Source of the DNA: Patescibacteria group bacterium
GTDB lineage: Bacteria > Patescibacteriota > Minisyncoccia > Moranbacterales > JAKLHP01
NCBI GenBank assembly: GCA_043803385.1
Contig: JAZDKA010000010.1
Location: 989 to 64,988, forward strand
DNA length: 64,000 nt
Reading direction: 5' to 3'
Shown: piece by piece, positions 8,410-58,655 of the stretch
Layout: each line of letters begins with the position of its first letter
Numbering within the stretch: position 1 is the stretch's first letter
Notes under the pieces: generated by a model
Told to the model about the DNA's origin: nothing
Database searches by the model: none
The model's input: only the letters and a program-made list of their open reading frames with translations
Translations under genes and position numbers: made by a program

Positions 8410-8441
8410 ATTACACCCACATACTAGTATGTGGGTGTAAT
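8410..8441. promoter_or_regulatory. 32-bp perfect palindrome ATTACACCCACATACT|AGTATGTGGGTGTAAT
   Basis: 16+16 perfect inverted repeat in the intergenic region upstream of the acetyl-CoA synthetase gene; no adjacent U-run. Confidence 0.5.
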
Positions 8442-8837: not shown

Positions 8838-9941
8838 CTAATCCAAACTCTTTAATTTCTCTATAATCTCTTTTTGCTCCCTTGTCAAATGTTTTGGGAT
8901 TTTGACGATAATTTTGACCAAGTGGTCGCCTCGGCCGCGCCGGTCTAAAAACGGCACGCCTTCGTCTTTGATTTTAAAAATTTCTCCTGATTGGGTTCCG
9001 GCGGGGACTTTCATCTTTAGCATTCCATTTATTGTGTCAATATCAATTTTATCTCCCAGAACCGCTTGGGAAAAGGTGATATGTTCACTGGAAATAATAT
9101 TATTTTTCTCTCTTTTAAATTTCAGATGGGGAATGACATGGATATTGACATACAAATTTCCGCTGGGCGCGCCTTTTTCTCCGGCTTCTCCCCGTTCTTC
9201 AAGCGATAGCGTTTGCCCATCCTGAATCCCAGCCGGAATATCAATTTCAATTCTCTCTTCTTCTTTTACTCTGCCATCGCCTCCGCACCTGTGGCATTTG
9301 TCAGAATTGATTTCTCCCGCTCCTTGGCAAGTCGGACAAGTTGAAACTTGAGAAAAACTTCCAAAAAAGCTTTGCATTGTTTTTCGAACTTGTCCGCTTC
9401 CATGGCAAGCCGGGCAAGTTTCTTTTTTGGCTCCCGGTTCTCCTCCGGTTCCGTGGCATCGGCCGCAAACCGCATTTTTATATAAATTAATAATTTTTGA
9501 GGCGCCCCTGACCATTTCTTCGAAAGTAATTTCTATGTCAATCTGAATATCTTTTCCGGGTTTTTTTCTGGTTTTTCTCCTGTTTCCGAAATTTCCGCCA
9601 AAAATATCAGAAAAAATATCATCGAAACCGATGTCTTGAAAATCCCAGCCTCCAGTTGGTCCGCCTTGGTTTTGATTAAATCCTTGGAATCCAGAAAAAT
9701 CGAAGCCTCCAAAACCGCCTGCTTGCCCGGCTTCAAAAGTCTGGCCGAATTGGTCGTATTGCTGGCGTTTCGCCTTGTCGGAAAGCACTTGATAAACAGC
9801 GTTTATTTCCTTGAATTTCTTTTCATCCCCGCCTGATTTGTCAGGATGATGCTTATGCGCCAGTTTCCGATAAGCCTTTTTTATCTCGTCATCCGACGCA
9901 GTCTTCGAAACGCCTAATATGTCATAATAGCTAGTAGCCAT
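8838..9941 (-). CDS. dnaJ: Chaperone DnaJ
   Basis: J-domain with HPD ([12 protein letters not shown]), Gly/Phe-rich linker, four CxxCxGxG zinc-finger repeats. Confidence 0.9.
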
Positions 9942-9969
9942 AAAAATATATTATCATAACAAATAAAAA

Positions 9970-9996
9970 TTAGCAATCCCAACCGGCGAGTGCTAA
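9970..9996. promoter_or_regulatory. CIRCE-like operator upstream of dnaJ
   Basis: TTAGCAATC-N9-GAGTGCTAA; overlaps a TTGCTA-17-TAATAT minus-strand promoter. Confidence 0.7.
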
Positions 9997-10017
9997 TTGG
10001 TAGATCGGCAAATAAAA

Positions 10018-10050
10018 TAATGAAGGTGCCCGTACGCAGACGACCACCTT
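10018..10050 (-). terminator. Intrinsic terminator of the 10058 gene
   Basis: GAAGGTG...CACCTTC hairpin followed by ATTATTTTATTT on the minus strand. Confidence 0.5.
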
Positions 10051-10057
10051 CTTTGTT

Positions 10058-10480
10058 TTACCTTATAAGATTTTTCATTGCCTTTCTTGCAAAAGAAACC
10101 ACTTCTTTTCTTTTTTCGTGTTTATGCTCTTCTAAAATATCCGTTATGTCTATTAGTACATCGCCTATTTTCATACATTTATATATGTAATCTAAAAAGG
10201 CTTCTTCCTCTGTTAGCTCTCCTTTTATGCAGCTCTTGTAACATTCGAAGGACATTATAATAACATACCTTTCAAATGATTTAGGTACCTCCTCGGTGAA
10301 TGGGGAAAATTCTTCTCCCTCTTTATAAAACCCGTATTTATCACCGATTTTTATAAGGATTATTTTTTCCTTAATACTTCCGAGTTTTGAAAAAAACTCA
10401 TCCGATTCCCCTCTTAAATAATCTCTAAGCCAATCCAGCTCTTCTTTTCTGGTTTTGGGTTTTCTTCTTAATGCTATCAT
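10058..10480 (-). CDS. Hypothetical protein
   Basis: Start chosen at MIALRRK preceded by GGGAGGG SD; AT-rich; own terminator hairpin at 10018-10050. Confidence 0.5.
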   Translation of the reverse strand: MIALRRKPKTRKEELDWLRDYLRGESDEFFSKLGSIKEKIILIKIGDKYGFYKEGEEFSPFTEEVPKSFERYVIIMSFECYKSCIKGELTEEEAFLDYIYKCMKIGDVLIDITDILEEHKHEKRKEVVSFARKAMKNLIR

Positions 10481-10682
10481 GATACCCTCCCGCAAATTTA
10501 TTTTAATTTATTTTAAAAAAACTTTCCTCCAATATCTATATTCATATCTATATCATCCCATTAAATTAATGTCAAAATTTAAAAAGCTTGCCCTGCAGCA
10601 AGCTTCTTGTCCTGTAGTCAACTTGTTGTACTACCGGGATGCTTTGCTACAGGGTTATCCACAGCCCCCTCAAATTTGACAT

Positions 10683-10710
10683 TTGACAAATTTATGCCTT
10701 GAAGTAGAAT
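10683..10710 (+). promoter_or_regulatory. Promoter TTGACA-16-TAGAAT for the 10845 secreted-protein gene
   Basis: Hexamer spacing; preceded by a duplicated AAATTTGACATTTGACA motif. Confidence 0.4.
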
Positions 10711-10844
10711 TAAGATAAGGAAGTTTTTTTGACAACTTTGTTAAAGCAAACGTATTAAAAATACTTTATGAAGGGAGGTGAACTTTTTTCGGCAGATTTG
10801 GGGAATTAACCCCAAAAAAGTTTTTCCTGAAACAAGGAGGAAAC

Positions 10845-11174
10845 ATGAAAAAAATTTTTATAGTAGTACTGTTTTTGGCTCTTATGACACTGACGTCTCA
10901 GGCGTACGCAATTGGCACAACGGGTCCTCCGGCAGACTCAATCGGGACCACAGTCGCCACATCAACCTACCCCCATGCAGGCACTAACGTTGCGACCGTG
11001 ACGGCACCCGATTGGGACAGCAGAAGCCAGAAGGTCGCCAAGGCAACTACCGTAAATAACCTGAAGAAAAGCGCGGCTGACACGGGCACTACGAATACCG
11101 AAATTGCCCCCGTCGCCGTGAATCTGGAGAAGATCAACATGAAGAGGACCGGCGGCGATTTAACGCTCGGCTGA
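10845..11174 (+). CDS. Small secreted protein (signal peptide, Thr/Ala/Gly-rich)
   Basis: AAGGAGG SD; N-terminal signal peptide ending AYA; markedly GC-richer than its surroundings. Confidence 0.6.
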   Translation: MKKIFIVVLFLALMTLTSQAYAIGTTGPPADSIGTTVATSTYPHAGTNVATVTAPDWDSRSQKVAKATTVNNLKKSAADTGTTNTEIAPVAVNLEKINMKRTGGDLTLG

Positions 11175-11206
11175 AGTGAAGGCGCCCTGGTTCAGAAGTA
11201 AAAAGT

Positions 11207-11224
11207 GGGGAGATTCGTCTCCCC
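11207..11224. terminator. GC hairpin GGGGAGA-TTCG-TCTCCCC
   Basis: Perfect 7-bp stem with tetraloop; U-run only on the minus side. Confidence 0.4.
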
Positions 11225-11225
11225 C

Positions 11226-11406
11226 GCAATACTAATTTCATTACGAACCGCCCTTCTACATCACATTTTTTGCCTGGATACCTCTGAAGGGCGGTGCAGT
11301 ACTATCTTCGGGTCTCTCTGCTATCCACCTATTACACGTAGCTTTACCACTTTATCATTAGTACCACTAGTGGAGAGGCTCACCAGCAATTCTTATACCC
11401 CGTTAT
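11226..11406 (+). ncRNA. Candidate structured noncoding region between two terminators (speculative sRNA or gene remnant)
   Basis: About 180 nt GC-richer noncoding stretch with GCCCTTC...GAAGGGC and CCACTAGTGG stems, ending at the 11407-11467 terminator; no SD or ORF. Confidence 0.2.
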
Positions 11407-11467
11407 TACAGGAGTTTCTCAAAACTAAGCGGAACTACGCTTTATTGAGAACCTCCTGTTTTTTTTA
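11407..11467 (+). terminator. Intrinsic terminator
   Basis: CAGGAGTTTCTCAA...TTGAGAACCTCCTG hairpin plus T8. Confidence 0.55.
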
Positions 11468-11490
11468 TTTCTCTTACAATTTTTTCAAGA

Positions 11491-11513
11491 CTATCGAGGT
11501 CGAACCTCGATAG
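11491..11513. repeat. 23-bp perfect palindrome CTATCGAGGTCGAACCTCGATAG (intergenic copy)
   Basis: Identical to the element inside cysS at 22222-22247. Confidence 0.7.
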
Positions 11514-11527
11514 AAGTTTTTCAATAA

Positions 11528-11560
11528 AAAACGAGGGATGCCTAAGGTATCCCTCTATTT
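11528..11560 (-). terminator. Intrinsic terminator of the 11566 gene
   Basis: GAGGGATACC-TTA-GGCATCCCTC hairpin followed by GTTTTTTATT on the minus strand. Confidence 0.6.
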
Positions 11561-11565
11561 GTGAC

Positions 11566-12213
11566 TCATTGATTTCTTTTCTGAAGCAACTTCTCCCATT
11601 GTCGCTTCAGTTCTTCGCAATTTTCCTTTGAAGGAGACTTGCCTTTCGATTTCCTGATTATTTTCCAAGCCTCATCAATAAGGGGCGGTTCCTTCAAGCC
11701 GTAGTACTTGATAATCCCCCTAAGGCTTATTTCTGAATATAGGCCAATTGGGAAAGGTCTCCCGTCGCCAATCTCGAGCAACATTACTTCCATGAAAGGC
11801 TGAGCTCTTAGTGTTATCTTTCCAGTAGCCCATTGAAGCACGGGTATGGTAAAGAATATTCCGGTCACACCTTCGATTGAAACTTTCCAGCCCATAGTTT
11901 CCCTCTTCTTCTCTTCTGTTCCAGAAAAGGAAAGGAGCTCCGATTGTATCTTCCATGAGCGTCTCATGTCCCTGACAGCTTTCTCAACGATAGCTATCAA
12001 GTTGGCTCCCAGTTTAGGTGATTGGTTTCTTATCTCTTTTCTTATACTCTCAATATCTTCATCACCCAGGGAAGCGACTCTTTCCGCTAGGTCTTTAGTG
12101 AAGATGTTTTCGCTGAAAACACCGTTGGCTCTTAGCTCAGAAAAAATGCTTACTAATCCTTTCGCCAAACTGCCAATTTCCTTCTCCGTCAATTCTTTTT
12201 GCGTTTCTTCCAT
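11566..12213 (-). CDS. Hypothetical protein
   Basis: 215-aa ORF; GC about 43%; followed by an intrinsic terminator at 11528-11560. Confidence 0.5.
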   Translation of the reverse strand: MEETQKELTEKEIGSLAKGLVSIFSELRANGVFSENIFTKDLAERVASLGDEDIESIRKEIRNQSPKLGANLIAIVEKAVRDMRRSWKIQSELLSFSGTEEKKRETMGWKVSIEGVTGIFFTIPVLQWATGKITLRAQPFMEVMLLEIGDGRPFPIGLYSEISLRGIIKYYGLKEPPLIDEAWKIIRKSKGKSPSKENCEELKRQWEKLLQKRNQ

Positions 12214-12427
12214 AATAACCTCCCTTTTTTATTTGACTCAAGAATAAAGAAACTTGTCCTAAATTTCCTTATTGTTAAGTCCAATTAAATCAAAGAACTT
12301 GATAATATAAACTAACGCTAAAAGATGGTTTTTGTCAATTAAAAAAAGCCACAAAATTAAAAGGCGGAGGAGTCGGTGTGATACCACGTATCACTTTCCA
12401 GCTCCTTCGCCATGCCCATATACTCAT

Positions 12428-12637
12428 TCATATGCCCCGTTCTCTGTAAAGATCTGCGAGGCCATCCAATAAAGTTGCATTGAGTCTTCTTCCTCTACTG
12501 GCAGCGCGTTTCCAAACTCTGCCAGAAGAAACCCTGAAAGCTCTTCTTAGTCTCCTCACTGCATTGGAGACCACAACATACTTGGTAGTACCCACTTGAA
12601 TAACTTCGTTATCGAATTTATTGCAATTCGTATTCAT
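12428..12637 (-). CDS. Hypothetical small basic protein (69 aa)
   Basis: Start MNTNCNK with GAGGAGGG SD 4 nt upstream; GC-rich; Arg-rich C-terminus. Confidence 0.45.
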   Translation of the reverse strand: MNTNCNKFDNEVIQVGTTKYVVVSNAVRRLRRAFRVSSGRVWKRAASRGRRLNATLLDGLADLYRERGI

Positions 12638-12705
12638 AAAACCCTCCTCTTCTTGGATTTTACTAAAGCATAACTCAAAAAAGAAAAAAATCAAGTTTTT
12701 AAATT

Positions 12706-12724
12706 ATCGAAGTCGGACTTCGAT
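12706..12724. repeat. Covarying variant palindrome ATCGAAGTCGGACTTCGAT
   Basis: Same architecture as ATCGAGGTCGAACCTCGAT with compensatory A/T for G/C changes. Confidence 0.5.
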
Positions 12725-12820
12725 TTTAGATTTAGATCATTTTCATTTTACCTATACTATAAAATTTAGCGTAGGCTAGAAATTATAGTATGATTTTTTA
12801 GTCTTTTGTAGTTTATATTT

Positions 12821-12852
12821 TATTCAGTATAAGTATACTAGTATACTGAATA
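12821..12852. promoter_or_regulatory. Inverted repeat TATTCAGTATA-N10-TATACTGAATA with palindromic ATACTAGTAT spacer
   Basis: 11-bp arms; intergenic. Confidence 0.35.
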
Positions 12853-12996
12853 ATTCATTTGATTATGTAATTAATTACTTACTTCAGTACGTACCAAGGT
12901 TAAACTGCTTAAATTATAATCTTTCCAATAAAAAAAGCGAGGGTGGTGAAAATCGTTATTTCCCCTCGCTTTACAAACTCTCCCGCATCTCCTTAT

Positions 12997-13446
12997 TTAG
13001 TGGCAGCATGAGTATTGGTAATCAAACCTGATTCCGTCGAGCCTGTCTTCCTTCAGCCATTCATAGTGTCCGTAGGCACAGAGTAAAAACAAAGAGTTCA
13101 TTGCAATGCAAATTGCAGCCGGCCGGACACTCTCTTCGGAAACCTGGAGAATGTCGCAGAGGATAAAGAATGCCAGTCCGCCCAGAAACCATGCGGAGAT
13201 ATTCATGACAATGAGAGTTGTCTTGATAATATCCTCGATTCTCATAATCTCACCGAGTTTATTTATCGGCAAGCGATTAACGCTAGCCGATGCAAGATGC
13301 CCGTAACATATAGCGAAGATCACACAACCCAGGATGGGAGAAATTGGATCCTTCAGATCTGAAGCCAGAAGAGAAAGGTTAAAAAAGTACAACGAGACTG
13401 CCAGTGAAACCAGTCCCAAAACAAGAAACACTCTTGCTTTATTCAT
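12997..13446 (-). CDS. Hypothetical integral membrane protein
   Basis: Start MNKARVF with AAGGAGG SD; about 4 TM helices; GC about 45%. Confidence 0.55.
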   Translation of the reverse strand: MNKARVFLVLGLVSLAVSLYFFNLSLLASDLKDPISPILGCVIFAICYGHLASASVNRLPINKLGEIMRIEDIIKTTLIVMNISAWFLGGLAFFILCDILQVSEESVRPAAICIAMNSLFLLCAYGHYEWLKEDRLDGIRFDYQYSCCH

Positions 13447-13673
13447 AACGCCTCCTTTTACCAATTTTGATTTATTTCTGATGAATAAAGAATAGCACCC
13501 TGCGGTACCAAAAGTCAATATTGTGTATTCAATTACTTACCTAATTCCCTTATTCTCCTATTCGCGCGCCCCGTAGCGTCCCGCCATGACGGGACTGCTT
13601 CTGGGGCGAATTAGAGATAGCATCTAGTATCAACAGCAAATTCTTCCAGTTTTTGGGTTGGTTGTTGGGACAA

Positions 13674-14453
13674 TTATAATTTGATTATTGTTAGTAATGA
13701 ATATAATCCAATAATAGCGGTTATAATGAGAAATAAAATATCTCCAAGTATATATCTTAACTCATCATTAAATAATCCTCGTTTACTTAGTTTTTCTATT
13801 TTCAGTAAGCATTTTATTTCATGATAACATTTATTTAAATTTGGAAATTTGCTATTAGAAAAATATTCTGGTGTGCCTATTCCGTCTATATGTATCATTT
13901 TTTTTAGAATATAAATATATCTTATGTATTTAATAATATCAAGAGATTCATTTAACCTTTCATAATCATTATTTTTAATAGTTGTATTTTTTTGTTCAGA
14001 TTCTATTTCTGTTTTTTTATTTTCTATGACATTTTCACATTCAATATAATTTCTGTTTTTTAAATTTTTTTCATAAAAATCAAATGATTTCAAAAGAATT
14101 TTTGTGTCAGAATATTTAAAAGAATTAAAATTATCAATTAAGTGATTGAATCTTTCAACAAGTTGAATGAAGTAAGTTAATTGAGAGGATAATTTAGCGC
14201 TGATAAGGCTACTATTTACGATATCTGGAACTATTGAAGTGTCAACTTTATAAACGATTTCTCCAGGATAAAACCATGCCTCTTTATTTAAATCTTTTGG
14301 ATATGAAGAAGAGAACCATTCACCTGCTGTATTTAAAAGAGCTTCAAGGGCGTTTATTATTTTTTTATATTCAGCTATCATGCTTAATCTATATATCAAC
14401 CAACCAGAAATTATCGCAATTGATGCTAAAAATATTTCTATCTTTAATTCCAT
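13674..14453 (-). CDS. Hypothetical membrane-anchored protein (N- and C-terminal TM, Lys/Asn-rich)
   Basis: 259-aa ORF, very AT-rich, TM helices at both ends. Confidence 0.45.
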   Translation of the reverse strand: MELKIEIFLASIAIISGWLIYRLSMIAEYKKIINALEALLNTAGEWFSSSYPKDLNKEAWFYPGEIVYKVDTSIVPDIVNSSLISAKLSSQLTYFIQLVERFNHLIDNFNSFKYSDTKILLKSFDFYEKNLKNRNYIECENVIENKKTEIESEQKNTTIKNNDYERLNESLDIIKYIRYIYILKKMIHIDGIGTPEYFSNSKFPNLNKCYHEIKCLLKIEKLSKRGLFNDELRYILGDILFLIITAIIGLYSLLTIIKL

Positions 14454-14509
14454 AACTTTTGTTTATATTATTTAAAGGCGGGGGATTTAACCCCGCCTAA
14501 AATTAGTCG

Positions 14510-16429
14510 TTACTTTTTTTCTTCTTTCTTTTCGGTTTTCTTTTCTGTTTCAGCTTCTTTTGGTTCTCCATCCTTCGCTGAAGCTTCGGACTGGCTAGCG
14601 CCTTCCGTAGCTTTAGCGGAGGCGGCTTGGGCAGCGGCATACAGCTTCTGGCCGATCTTTTGGGCTTCTTGGGAAAGCGCTTCAGTGGCTTTCTTAATAG
14701 CTTCCAGGTCATCGCCATTTTTTACCTTATTCAGTTCTTCGATCTTTTCCTGAACCGGTTTCTTTTCATCTTCCGTAATTTTATCTCCGGCTTCGCGCAT
14801 GGCTTTTTCGATGGTATATGCCAAAGTGTCGGCCATATTGCGCGCTTCAACTAATTCTTTCTTTTTTTTGTCTTCTTCCGCATGAATTTCCGCATCTTTT
14901 TTCATTCTCTCAATCTCATCCTTGGAAAGGCCGCTGGAAGCTTCGATTCTGATTGATTGAGTCCGTCCGGTGGCTTTGTCTTTGGCAGTGACGCTCAAAA
15001 TTCCATTGGCGTCAATATCAAAAGTAACTTCAACTTGCGGAATGCCTCTCGGAGAAGGCGGGATTCCATCCAGAATAAACCTTCCCAGCGATTTATTTCC
15101 TTCTGCCATTTCCCTTTCTCCCTGAAGCACATTAATTTCCACGCTGGGCTGGTTGTCAGCCGCGGTGGAAAATACCTGCGACTTGGAAGTCGGAACAGTG
15201 GTATTTCTGGAAATTAATGGCGTGGAAACTCCCCCTAAAGTTTCAATTCCAAAAGTCAACGGAGTAACATCGAGCAATAGCACGTCTTTAACCGAGCCTT
15301 CCAAAACTCCTCCCTGAATTGCGGCGCCTACCGCCACTACTTCATCCGGATTTACCGAAAGGTTTGGTTTCTTTCCAAAAAATTTCTCAACAGTTTTCAA
15401 TACTAGTGGCATTCTGGTCATTCCTCCGACCATAATTACTTCGTGAATATCTTTAGCTTCCAGCTTAGCATCTGCCAGCGCTTTCTTCATCGGTTCCAAA
15501 GTTTTTTCAACTAAATCGTGAACCAGTTCTTCCAGTTTGGCTCGGGAAAGCTTCATTACCAAATGCTTCGGACCGCTGGAATCGCTGGTGATGAACGGTT
15601 GGTTGATTTCGCTTTCCATAGCGGTTGAGAGCTCTATTTTTGCTTTCTCCGCCGATTCTTTGACTCTTTGAAGCGCCAAAGGGTCTTTGGACAAGTCAAT
15701 TCCTTCCTGCTTCTTATATTCGTCCAAGATCCAAGCGATTATTCTCTGGTCAAAATCGTCTCCTCCGAGATGGGTATCTCCATTGGTGGATTTTACTTCT
15801 ACAGTATCATCGCCGACTTCCAGAATGGAAATATCATAAGTTCCCCCTCCCAAATCATAAACAGCGATTTTCTCTTCTTTCTTTTTGTCAAAACCATAAG
15901 CCAGAGCGGCGGCTGTCGGTTCATTGATAATTCTTTTCACGTTGAATCCGGCAATTTCTCCCGCTTCTTTAGTGGCTTTTCTTTGAGAGTCGTCAAAATA
16001 GGCCGGAACAGTGATGACTGCGTCAGTAATTTTTTCACCAAGTTTTGCTTCCGCGTCTTGCTTTAATTTTTGGAGGATCATGGCGGAAATTTCCTGCGGA
16101 GTATATTCTTTTCCGCCCATTTCCACTTTAGTTCCGCCATTGGATTTGACAATTTTGTAAGACAGAAGTTTTAAATCTCTTTGCACTTCCGCGTCCTCAA
16201 AATGCCTGCCGATTAATCTCTTAATAGAAAACAATGTGTTTCCCGGATTGGTGACAGCTTGACGCTTAGCCAAAAGGCCGACTAGCCTTTCGTTGGTTTT
16301 GGAAATCGCCACCATTGACGGAGTGGTTCGGTTCCCTTCTTTGTTTTCGATTATTTCCGGCTTGCCTCCGGAAACTACCGCCATCGCGGAGTTGGTAGTC
16401 CCCAAATCTATTCCAAGTATCTTGGACAT
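14510..16429 (-). CDS. dnaK: Chaperone DnaK (Hsp70)
   Basis: [26 protein letters not shown] signatures; 639 aa. Confidence 0.95.
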
Positions 16430-21184: not shown

Positions 21185-22666
21185 ATGTTTAGAATTTATA
21201 ACACTTTAACTAAACAAAAAGAAGAATTTAAGCCGATTAATCCCGGTAAAGTTTCAATGTACGTTTGCGGCCCGACGGTTTATGATTTTTGTCATTTGGG
21301 GCATGCCCGAGGATATGTTGCAATTGATGTTCTTCGAAGATATTTAGAATATTCGGGATATGAAGTTCGGCATATTATGAACTACACCGATGTCGGACAT
21401 CTAGTTGATAACGCGGAAATCGGAGAAGACAAAATTGAAAAAAGGGCTAGAGCTGAAAAAATAGATCCGATTGAAATTGCCAATAAATTTATTAAATTTT
21501 GTGAAGATGATTTCGGCGTGCTTAATATCAAGCCGGCGCATTTTAATCCCAGACCGACAAAATATATCGCTCAAATTATCAAATTCAATGAAGAACTTAT
21601 CAAAAAAGGATTTGCTTATGAATCCAATGGCTCGGTATATTTTTCCGTGGACAAATTTCCGGAATATGGAAAACTTTCCGGAAAGAAAAAAGAAGATTTA
21701 CTAAGCGGCGCCAGAGTTGAAATCAATCCTGAAAAGAAAAACCCTCTTGATTTCGCGCTTTGGATAAAAGCGCCAAAGGAACACATTTTGAAATGGGAAA
21801 GTCCTTGGGGAATCGGCTATCCGGGATGGCATATCGAGTGTTCGGTAATGTCTTATGATCTTTTGGGACAGGACACTTTTGATATTCACGGAGGCGGAAA
21901 CGAAAATGCTTTTCCGCACAATGAAAATGAAATTGCCCAAAGCGAGGCGTATCTTGGCAAAAAAATGGCCAATTTTTGGTTTTTATGGAATATGGTTCAG
22001 GTTGACGGCCAAAAAATGAGCAAATCCTTGGGAAATTTCACAACTATAAAAGACGCAATTGAAAAATATGGAGCGATGGTGGTGAAACTTTGGATCTTGA
22101 GCTCCCATTACCGAAGCATTACTAATTTCAGTGAAGATGCGATTGAGCAAGCTCGTGTTAACTTTCAGCGAATTTCTGATTTTGTAAATAACCTTAAAAA
22201 TTCTGGTATCTATCGAGGTCGTATCTATCGAGGTCGAACCTCGATAGAAATTAAAAAATATCAGGAAAAGTTCGAGGAAGCGATGAATGATGATTTGAAT
22301 ACGCCTTTGGCTTTGTCAGTTTTGTATGAATTAATTACCGAAACAAATAAATCAAACCCGTCAAACACTAAAGAAATTTTGAGTTTATGGGAAAAGATGA
22401 ATAAAGTTTTTGGATTAACGATTCCGGAAAGAAAAAATATAAAAATTGGTATAGACGCAATTATCATAGAGAATGAGAATAATATTCCGCTAGATGTCGA
22501 GAAATTAATTGAAAAAAGATTCTATGCTAAAAAAATAAAAGATTTTGTTGAATCTGATAAATTACGAGAATTAATTGAAAAAAGGGGATATTCAATTGAA
22601 GATACAAAAAAAGGATTAAAAGTAAAAGTAAAACTAAAGATTAAAAATAAAATAAAGAGAAAATAA
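21185..22666 (+). CDS. cysS: Cysteinyl-tRNA synthetase
   Basis: HLGHARGY (HIGH) and KMSKSLGN motifs; carries an in-frame palindromic repeat insert (IYRGRIYRGRTSIE). Confidence 0.9.
   Translation: MFRIYNTLTKQKEEFKPINPGKVSMYVCGPTVYDFCHLGHARGYVAIDVLRRYLEYSGYEVRHIMNYTDVGHLVDNAEIGEDKIEKRARAEKIDPIEIANKFIKFCEDDFGVLNIKPAHFNPRPTKYIAQIIKFNEELIKKGFAYESNGSVYFSVDKFPEYGKLSGKKKEDLLSGARVEINPEKKNPLDFALWIKAPKEHILKWESPWGIGYPGWHIECSVMSYDLLGQDTFDIHGGGNENAFPHNENEIAQSEAYLGKKMANFWFLWNMVQVDGQKMSKSLGNFTTIKDAIEKYGAMVVKLWILSSHYRSITNFSEDAIEQARVNFQRISDFVNNLKNSGIYRGRIYRGRTSIEIKKYQEKFEEAMNDDLNTPLALSVLYELITETNKSNPSNTKEILSLWEKMNKVFGLTIPERKNIKIGIDAIIIENENNIPLDVEKLIEKRFYAKKIKDFVESDKLRELIEKRGYSIEDTKKGLKVKVKLKIKNKIKRK
22208..22247. 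repeat. Palindromic element plus 15-bp direct duplication inserted in-frame in cysS
   Basis: GTATCTATCGAGGTC GTATCTATCGAGGTC GAACCTCGATAG encodes IYRGRIYRGRTSIE. Confidence 0.7.
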
Positions 22667-47268: not shown

Positions 47269-47385
47269 TGCAGACCTCCTTAGATTATTGTCGAAATTCG
47301 ACTTATATTTGTATCATGGGAAGAATGTGAAGTCAGATATAAAAATAAAAAACGCTTTAATCAAGGGCTTTTTTTATTTTCAGCC

Positions 47386-47411
47386 AATGGCTAAATCGCG
47401 ATTTAGCCATT
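47386..47411. promoter_or_regulatory. 26-bp perfect palindrome AATGGCTAAATCG|CGATTTAGCCATT
   Basis: 13+13 perfect inverted repeat next to module copy A. Confidence 0.45.
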
Positions 47412-47422
47412 GAGTTAGCAAA

Positions 47423-47453
47423 ACACAAAAACAGGGTTTTATCCCTGCTTTTT
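47423..47453 (-). terminator. Conserved terminator module ACACAAAAACAGGGTTTTATCCCTGCTTTTT (copy 1)
   Basis: CAGGG-TTTTAT-CCCTG stem; on the minus strand followed by TTTTTGTGTT; identical flanks in copy 2. Confidence 0.6.
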
Positions 47454-47497
47454 AAATTTGTATCATAATGCTACGGCCGTCGGAAGACGACACATTT
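47454..47497. repeat. Copy A of a ~45-bp palindromic promoter/operator-like module
   Basis: AAATTTGTATCATAATGCTACGGCCGTCGGAAGACGACACATT. Confidence 0.7.
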
Positions 47498-48240: not shown

Positions 48241-48272
48241 AACACAAAAACAGGGTTTTATCCCTGCTTTTT
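48241..48272 (-). terminator. Conserved terminator module (copy 2), positioned between the module promoter and the 48203 gene start (attenuator-like)
   Basis: Identical 31-mer to copy 1. Confidence 0.6.
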
Positions 48273-48316
48273 AAATTTGTATCATAATCCTACGACCGTG
48301 GGAAAATGACACATTT
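48273..48316. repeat. Copy B of the palindromic module
   Basis: AAATTTGTATCATAATCCTACGACCGTGGGAAAATGACACATTT. Confidence 0.7.
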
Positions 48317-52905: not shown

Positions 52906-53027
52906 AAATTTGTGTTTATTATTTTTCTATTAAAGGATCGGCTATATGTTAATTATACACCAAATCGCTGAAAAGCACACTTTAATTATTTGAGATTCAT
53001 GATTTCTTTTGTGAAATCTGTAATTTT

Positions 53028-53072
53028 TTAATTTGTATCATAATTCTACAGCCGTAGGAAAATGATACATTC
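53028..53072. repeat. Copy C of the palindromic module
   Basis: TTAATTTGTATCATAATTCTACAGCCGTAGGAAAATGATACATT. Confidence 0.7.
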
Positions 53073-58605: not shown

Positions 58606-58655
58606 ATTTTTTAATTTGTATCATAATTCTACGGCCGTGGGAAAATGATACATTT
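58606..58655. repeat. Copy D of the palindromic module
   Basis: TTTTTTAATTTGTATCATAATTCTACGGCCGTGGGAAAATGATACATTT. Confidence 0.7.

Follow-up and report, generated by a model that had tools for sequence, protein, structure and literature searches.

The 64-kb window analysed here is a stretch of 64,000 nucleotides of contig JAZDKA010000010.1, from the Patescibacteria group bacterium assembly GCA_043803385.1, and it contains the gene cysS for cysteine--tRNA ligase, within which a short palindromic element is translated in frame. This cysS segment is probably a copy of a hairpin that resembles the repetitive extragenic palindromic (REP) sequences, together with a duplicated left arm, and the family to which it belongs is of the REPtron type in other genomes and would be mobilised by a REP-associated tyrosine transposase (RAYT). 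The features of the window are listed in Table 1.

The 23-mer CTATCGAGGTCGAACCTCGATAG is present in two exact copies located 10.7 kb apart, one intergenic at 11491-11513 and the other inside cysS at 22225-22247, compared with 0.00 matches expected by chance (100 dinucleotide-preserving shuffles). This confirms that the repeat and its cysS copy are real, as stated in the original prediction, in which the cysS copy was placed three bases off, at 22222-22247. The identity between the two spans 25 bases, CTATCG...GATAGAA. The description of the element as a palindrome holds for its inverted arms but not for a perfect symmetry, as CTATCGAGGTCGAACCTCGATAG is an imperfect palindrome with a 10-bp stem and a 3-nt CGA loop. 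In the cysS copy, the stem grows to 11 bp (TCTATCGAGGT CGA ACCTCGATAGA, 22224-22248). The related variant ATCGAAGTCGGACTTCGAT at 12706-12724 contains a single central G between two 9-nt complementary arms, with an A-T for a G-C at the variable pair, and is thus symmetric and covarying as first described. Folding of the three copies as single-stranded DNA gave -9.7, -11.3 and -6.5 kcal/mol (z = -5.0, -4.2 and -3.4). The copy at 11491 is flanked by a terminator-like hairpin of a plus-strand unit (about 11410-11470) and the terminator of a minus-strand gene (11566..12213), and the variant at 12705..12724 is intergenic, about 70 nt upstream of a minus-strand open reading frame (ORF) starting at 12637. 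Three copies and a half copy make up the total for the 64 kb, and a scan of the window at up to 2-3 mismatches gave no further full or half copies.

A scan of one genome per species with the pattern ATCGARGTCGRACYTCGAT identified at least 118 loci, and all counts for the family cover the matches listed from these loci. They are mainly located in Patescibacteria and Nitrospirota and also in a few other phyla such as Omnitrophota, with several copies per genome, for example at least 13 in Nitrospira BS150m-G55. The Patescibacteria groups among the matches listed include Paceibacterota, Saccharibacteria, Giovannonibacteria, Azambacteria and others. The family core consists of 21 nt, T-ATCGA-R-GTCG-R-AC-Y-TCGAT-A, which the subfamily in the window lengthens to TCTATCGAGGTCGAACCTCGATAGA. 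For the analysis of covariation, 102 copies were aligned together with their 8-nt flanks. In this alignment, 16 core positions are fixed by the search pattern and hence uninformative, while the flanks and the R/Y pair could vary freely. At the variable stem pair, 53 of these copies have G-C, 43 have A-T and 3 have G-T, and the combination at this pair is complementary in 114 of the 129 matches listed, versus 50% by chance. The core is bordered by a T...A pair in 82 of the 102 copies, and pairing extends to as many as four more flanking positions, in 49-64% of the copies compared with 27-44% in slid controls. The flank pairs use different bases in each genome (aatt/aatt, aact/agtt, atct/agat and others), and covariation as strong as that observed was obtained in none of 500 shuffles. 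Because the free flanks and the R/Y pair covary, selection for, or propagation of, a hairpin is supported. Beyond the positions fixed by the pattern, the flanking T/A and the covarying pair recur in classes of Patescibacteria, in Nitrospirota and in Omnitrophota.

Inverted doublets occur occasionally (L031, L051, L096, L112 and L129). The suggestion that the element is MITE-like (miniature inverted-repeat transposable element) was rejected, as the unit is only about 21-25 nt without terminal inverted repeats around a body, similarity between the copies stops within 25-28 nt, and neither of the window copies at 11491 and in cysS has direct repeats at its flanks. No match to the 21-nt core was found in viral contigs, and there is thus no sign of a phage vector. 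A CRISPR repeat (clustered regularly interspaced short palindromic repeats), a tRNA fragment and a sequencing adapter were also considered and dropped, given the irregular spacing, the unfitting structure and the location of the element within conserved reading frames from many independent studies.

To identify associated genes, every ORF within 2.5 kb of a palindrome match was included in an unbiased all-against-all BLAST search. One ORF family recurs near the palindromes, at 12 loci among the matches listed. At eleven of these, the ORF is a protein or fragment of a type of ~230 amino acids that matches the Pfam family Y1_Tnp (“Transposase IS200 like”) above the gathering score, and at the twelfth, L026, it belongs to another Y1 subfamily and has no adjoining palindromes. 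The HxH and Y..H.NP motifs are invariant in the transposase alignment. At each of the nine loci where sequence is available to the left and right of the gene, there is a palindrome within 100 bp on either side, and the same nine contain one or two extra palindromes inside the transposase gene, in frame. A Y1 gene flanked by palindromes corresponds to the REPtron known from work on REP-associated tyrosine transposases (PMC3333891, PMC6006769), and this arrangement is present in these other genomes and not within the window. The large size of the family, its covarying stems and the flanking Y1 gene of RAYT type bear out the prediction of a REP-like dispersed element. The exact 23-mer variant of the window flanks, and also sits inside, such a gene in the Hainich groundwater contigs L133 and L136.

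The transposase family contains at least 7,991 clusters at E up to 1e-10. In its best 120 members (P0121-P0240), 23 carry YR[GS]xTSI near residue 159, right after the catalytic tyrosine motif YIHxNP, and seven carry IEVxxRY (IEVGLRY-type) near residue 59. Some RAYT-type genes end at a stop codon supplied by the palindrome (IEVEPR*). The motifs NH[FY]H, LFQG and YIH[TL]NP and a length of about 233 amino acids match the signature of subclass 2.1, to which the transposase would belong by its motifs rather than by phylogeny, and for which no REPs were found (PMC6006769, Table 1). The RAYT genes are mostly located on very short contigs. Comparison of the accession of the window's CysS protein, MFH0969127.1, with ten RAYT matches by NCBI accession series placed one of them in the same submission series, from a different genome.

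The distribution between and inside genes was counted for the 93 covarying copies in loci with at most 52% G+C. Of these, 63 are intergenic, despite a coding fraction of about 86%. Within unidirectional spacers, the copies are placed nearer the 3' end of the upstream gene (median 38 versus 142 nt), and the orientation of the hairpin loop relative to transcription is unbiased (13 of 30). About one third of the copies are located inside long ORFs, in frame. The hosts inspected, which were named by reading their sequences and not by a domain library, include MurD, UvrC, a UvrD-like helicase, PrmC, phosphoglycerate kinase (Pgk) and DnaX, and two copies each are present in a NiFe-hydrogenase large subunit and a family-39 glycosyltransferase. 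Two frames that are always open (YRxxTSI and SxSxxD) dominate, and few copies are read in the frame that usually terminates with TAA or TAG. Since two of three frames are open on each strand and the core corresponds to seven codons for small polar or charged residues (YRGRTSI, SRSNLD), copies landing in surface loops would be able to survive inside genes, which is of importance when about 86% of a genome is coding. The many in-frame copies inside intact housekeeping genes agree with the earlier claim that the element enters genes without inactivating them.

The intergenic positions raise the question of whether the palindromes are host cis-elements, such as terminators, mRNA-stabilising hairpins or operators, with the cysS copy being kept, for example, for translational pausing between the domains. 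Both intergenic copies in the window were rated terminator-like in a loose scan with a terminator consensus and are followed by T-rich tails, the intergenic family members are close to the 3' ends of upstream genes, and REPs in E. coli have such secondary roles (PMC3733652). However, the T tract is absent from the cysS copy, the loops show no preferred orientation, and identical cores are found in different phyla, flank a transposase gene on either side and also occur within unrelated coding sequences. Furthermore, a dimeric operator would not need the covarying variable flanks, and Rfam gave nothing relevant for the whole window at gathering thresholds, nor for positions 10400-13000 at E up to 1. 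A cis-element function is thus a quite improbable explanation for the family. The intergenic copies might act as terminators or RNA elements, but such a role leaves the coding copies unexplained.

The CysS protein is 100% identical to MFH0969127.1, which is derived from a metagenome-assembled genome (MAG) of Patescibacteria and belongs to a protein cluster with one member. The gene order dnaK-grpE-hrcA-...-corA-cysS-dnaB is common to Moranbacteria-like relatives, and the HIGH, KMSKS and Zn-ligand columns are invariant in an alignment of 16 CysS homologs. The palindrome at 22224..22248 encodes Y348-I354 (YRGRTSI). Pfam identified the catalytic domain at residues 15-324 and the DALR_2 anticodon-binding domain at residues 362-411, so that the palindrome-encoded residues 343-354 are placed in the linker between the domains, ahead of the anticodon-binding domain as originally proposed. 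An AlphaFold model of CysS inferred from 16 sequences is poor overall, with a mean predicted local distance difference test (pLDDT) score of 60, and only the local helix-loop-helix around residues 343-356 is considered here, with caution. In this model, the segment would form a loop between helices 317-343 and 356-368, with a pLDDT below 50 for residues 342-349. The length of the linker varies among the 16 homologs. It consists of 18 residues here versus 12 in the nearest homologs (76-79% identity, 463 amino acids), and the insertion of 13 residues in the original prediction is thus imprecise, the linker being longer by six residues.

Most CysS homologs lack the segment, which is the outcome expected for a lineage-specific insertion. 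The motif is present in two of the 120 best homologs, which includes one protein besides the CysS in the window, and is absent from the closest relatives. The other carrier is the CysS of Moranbacteria RIFCSPHIGHO2_12_FULL_40_10, which has a constant length of 482 amino acids across many samples. Its gene contains three tandem family palindromes in the same linker (L119, 5841-5918), of which the second and third are able to pair with each other, similar to the doublets in REPINs (REP doublets forming hairpins). In the closer relatives L120-L122, the 21 kb surrounding cysS contain no copy of the family. The CysS of RIFCSPHIGHO2_12_FULL_40_10 is 70% similar to that in the window, which is below the REP-free group of 463 amino acids, its first palindrome begins three codons nearer to the NNLK anchor, and its palindromes are variants unlike those in the window. 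Because of the lower similarity, the shifted start and the different variants, the simpler reading is that the same permissive linker was colonised independently in two lineages, while ancestral presence followed by precise loss would be a conceivable alternative. The second lineage also has a bearing on whether the cysS copy, as a whole or just in its 15-bp duplication, could be an artefact of assembling a short repeat in a MAG. The single MAG as source and the cluster with one member would fit such an artefact, but the CysS frame and homology continue on both sides, a 25-nt repeat would not accidentally join in frame, and the palindromes in the same linker of the independent lineage are found in a protein of constant length from many samples. 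We regard an artefact as very unlikely.

The 15-bp direct duplication that had been reported along with the cysS copy was recovered. The two units agree at 14 of 15 positions, with a synonymous difference (CGT/CGA, Arg), and the CysS frame continues uninterrupted through the duplication as NSG-IYRGR-IYRGR-TSIE-IKKYQ, residues 342-355. We rejected the idea of a target-site duplication, as the repeat consists of the element's own left arm and 1-2 flanking bases. Partial arm duplications beside full copies recur in L005, L012, L044 and L105 among the matches listed, which indicates slippage at the hairpin.

These results suggest a mechanism in which the element would form a hairpin in single-stranded DNA, to be cut and re-joined by a divergent Y1 HUH enzyme of RAYT type, encoded by a gene presumed to be present in the source genome. 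Spread without target-site duplication would be expected by analogy with IS200/IS605 and TnpA_REP of E. coli, and the absence of direct repeats together with the duplication of the element's own arm is compatible with a Y1 mechanism. Copies would persist only where they are harmless, and the cysS copy, which occupies a linker of variable length between the catalytic and DALR domains, may be neutral. The left arm would most simply have been duplicated later, by strand slippage at the hairpin, with one synonymous change arising afterwards, and the size of 15 bp would keep the frame, although this order of events is tentative.

The structure of the linker could also be explained by ectopic gene conversion or template switching, for example from 11491, that wrote the copy into a partly similar linker, after which the hairpin promoted the duplication. 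Consistent with this, the identity of the two window copies extends past the 21-nt core, and without the duplication the linker is close in length to that of L121, with edge codons (ATC and ATA-GAx) common to REP-free relatives. However, the same 25-26-mer is present in the unrelated genomes L047 and L107, with the 26-mer TCTATCG...CGATAGAA in L107 from Saccharibacteria, and the extended identity is thus a trait of the subfamily rather than a sign of local copying. Moreover, the relatives are just 76-79% identical, so that indels in the variable linker are uninformative, and conversion would need partial homology at each of the many different genes with in-frame copies. Gene conversion is therefore an unlikely source of the cysS copy.

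Several observations weigh against a mobile REP-like hairpin that was inserted into cysS. Without the duplication, the linker exceeds that of L121 by just one residue and has native-like edges (ATC..., ...ATA GAx). Because linker length and edges are near native, a clean cut-and-paste insertion cannot be reconstructed, and nor can the ancestral empty site, since the nearest CysS proteins are only 76-79% identical. The 64-kb window contains no RAYT gene, as a tblastn search with RAYT proteins matched only peptides encoded by the palindromes. The transposase scores 39 bits against the NCBIfam RayT model, below the cut-off of 80, and a profile search of the Protein Data Bank with the RAYT alignment gave no match at E up to 0.01. 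The consensus of the 102 copies (nnT-ATCGA...TCGAT-Ann, with variable complementary flanks) contains neither a GT[AG]G nor a CGTC tag. Patescibacteria genomes have just a handful of copies each among the matches listed, and the core is near-identical across phyla, whereas canonical REPs are species-specific (PMC6006769).

A wider hypothesis, which at present we find possible but rather doubtful, is that one pan-phylum REP family depends on a divergent RAYT clade with a subclass 2.1-like signature and routinely colonises protein loops in the streamlined Patescibacteria. If true, the loops colonised would include those of essential genes, of its own transposase (at about residues 59 and 159) and of the CysS linker in at least two lineages, and the recurrence would imply a real target preference or the use of REP-encoded peptides as linkers.

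The reading of the cysS segment as a REP-like hairpin has several consequences. It would place selfish hairpins of REP type and Y1 transposases, with a putative RAYT activity, in Patescibacteria, where intergenic space is scarce, and a sizeable share of the family copies survive inside essential genes. For annotation, odd inserts of 5-15 residues in Patescibacteria proteins (YRGRTSI, SKSDFD, IEVGLRY) would be recognised as repeat-derived. The location of RAYT genes on very short contigs is of concern for assembly, and natural insertion sites flag permissive loops for protein engineering. For REP biology, the cross-phylum core and the clean compensatory changes offer a handy system for studies of how RAYTs recognise hairpins.

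Table 1. Palindrome copies, their host gene in the 64-kb window, and RAYT-type genes of other genomes that carry the palindrome.
Feature	Position	Strand	Remark
Intact cysS (cysteine--tRNA ligase, 493 aa), which hosts the element	21185..22666	+	translation
Full REP-like palindrome in cysS	22224..22248	+	11-bp stem, CGA loop, family core 22226-22246
Extra left arm, first 15-bp unit ATCTATCGAGGTCGT	22208..22222	+	encodes I342-R346
Second 15-bp unit ATCTATCGAGGTCGA	22223-22237	+	tandem to 22208-22222
Intergenic twin	11491..11515	+	identical over 25 bases
Covarying variant TATCGAAGTCGGACTTCGAT	12705..12724	+	A-T replaces G-C at variable stem pair; loop G
RAYT-type genes with own palindrome in frame			L035, L047, L048, L063, L076, L101, L104, L108

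Two further additions to CysS were observed relative to the nearest homologs, neither of which is palindromic: an AT-rich lineage-specific insert of about 15 amino acids, ERKNIKIGIDAIIIENENN, at 22427-22490 (residues about 415-436), and a Lys-rich lineage-specific C-terminal tail, KVKVKLKIKNKIKRK, at 22615-22663 (residues 478-493).

Both intergenic palindrome copies are housed in the stretch 9950-14500 between dnaJ (8838..9941) and dnaK (14510..16429), about 4.5 kb that contain ORFs without a significant Pfam match (one weak, below the cut-off). Within it, 11175-11470 represents about 300 nt without a convincing ORF, between an ORF of 109 amino acids with a signal peptide and the palindrome at 11491. 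This segment contains terminator-like hairpins at about 11207-11225 and about 11410-11470 and has no Rfam match, and the block 10001-12000 is among the most G+C-rich 2-kb blocks of the window (0.41). The segment is possibly an unrecognised RNA or a long 3' untranslated region. No tRNA or transfer-messenger RNA was identified in the 64-kb window with ARAGORN, and no Rfam family at the gathering threshold.

Other repeats in the window include a ~48-nt motif, TTTTTAATTTGTATCATAATnCTACGGCCGTnGGAAAATGAyACATTT, in four copies at 47450-47497, 48269-48316, 53025-53072 and 58608-58655. The motif holds a short palindrome, which is CTAC...GTAG-footed in one of the four copies, and the copy at 47450-47497 is located between minus-strand genes, adjoining a terminator-like hairpin. 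The motif may represent another small repeat family, or else a regulatory site that these loci share. A perfect 32-bp palindrome, ATTACACCCACATACTAGTATGTGGGTGTAAT, is present at 8410-8441, about 400 bp past the 3' end of dnaJ, and a perfect 28-bp palindrome, CAATGGCTAAATCGCGATTTAGCCATTG, at 47385-47412, both of which are unrelated to the REP-like family.

The family shares features with several known types of small repeats. MITEs (Correia/NEMIS, RUP, ERIC) are repeats of 70-300 bp with terminal inverted repeats and target-site duplications that depend on DDE transposases. Like these, the palindromes are small and non-autonomous, but the other MITE traits were not seen here. The subterminal hairpins of IS200/IS605 are the ends of insertion sequences (IS) of 1-2 kb that carry tnpA and/or tnpB. 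Hairpins in single-stranded DNA for a Y1 HUH enzyme, which is the putative role here, and the lack of target duplication are common to both, while the hairpins of this family are solitary, with no IS body. The Rickettsia palindromic elements (RPEs) of Ogata et al. 2000, also cited in PMC3733652, are reportedly palindromes located in frame within essential genes, in a genome of reduced size. With a length of roughly 100-150 bp, the classic RPE-1 adds tens of residues, and we know of no established link between RPEs and RAYTs. Both represent selfish palindromic DNA in frame in essential genes, tolerated at surface positions, but the RPEs are larger than the unit of 21-25 nt and about 7 residues described here.

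The closest resemblance is to the REP/RAYT systems, REPtrons and REPINs of E. coli, Pseudomonas and Stenotrophomonas (PMC3333891, PMC3116915, PMC6006769). Our search of the literature found no description of the hairpin sequences themselves, nor a paper that ties REP/RAYT to Patescibacteria, which does not prove that none exists. As in these systems, the element is a short hairpin, and its copies among the matches listed are dispersed, mostly intergenic and near upstream 3' ends, and REPs likewise lie nearer the 3' end of the upstream gene (PMC3733652). A low-copy Y1 HUH gene flanked by the repeats in other genomes, the lack of target-site duplication and occasional inverted doublets are also shared, and the stem of 10-11 bp and loop of 3 nt agree with the definition of a REP as an imperfect palindrome of 20-40 nt that forms a stem-loop. 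Canonical REPs are defined by a GT[AG]G / CGTC tag (PMC6006769, PMC3733652), of which GT[AG]G is the guide tetranucleotide, while the family in the window is untagged and almost fully symmetric. It thus lacks two classical hallmarks of REPs, the tag and a sequence specific to a species or genus, and it also differs in having few copies per genome among the matches listed and a transposase divergent enough to fall below the NCBIfam RayT cut-off.

Di Nocera et al. 2013 (PMC3733652) reported REPs that are in frame within genes, tRNA synthetase and uvr genes among them, and Quentin et al. 2018 (PMC6006769) reported REPs located inside tnpA_REP genes in subclass 2.4. The palindromes studied here are similarly located in frame in known proteins (tRNA synthetases, uvr and replication genes) and in the transposase gene, at loops. 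The intragenic REPs in these studies carry the GTAG/CGTC tag and are found in Proteobacteria, Cyanobacteria, Bacteroidetes and Opitutus, whereas those presented here are untagged, have hosts in Patescibacteria and Nitrospirota, and are intragenic in about one third of cases. In-frame intragenic REPs are thus already known, and the family in the window is a new example with atypical traits, the lack of a tag and a core that extends across phyla.

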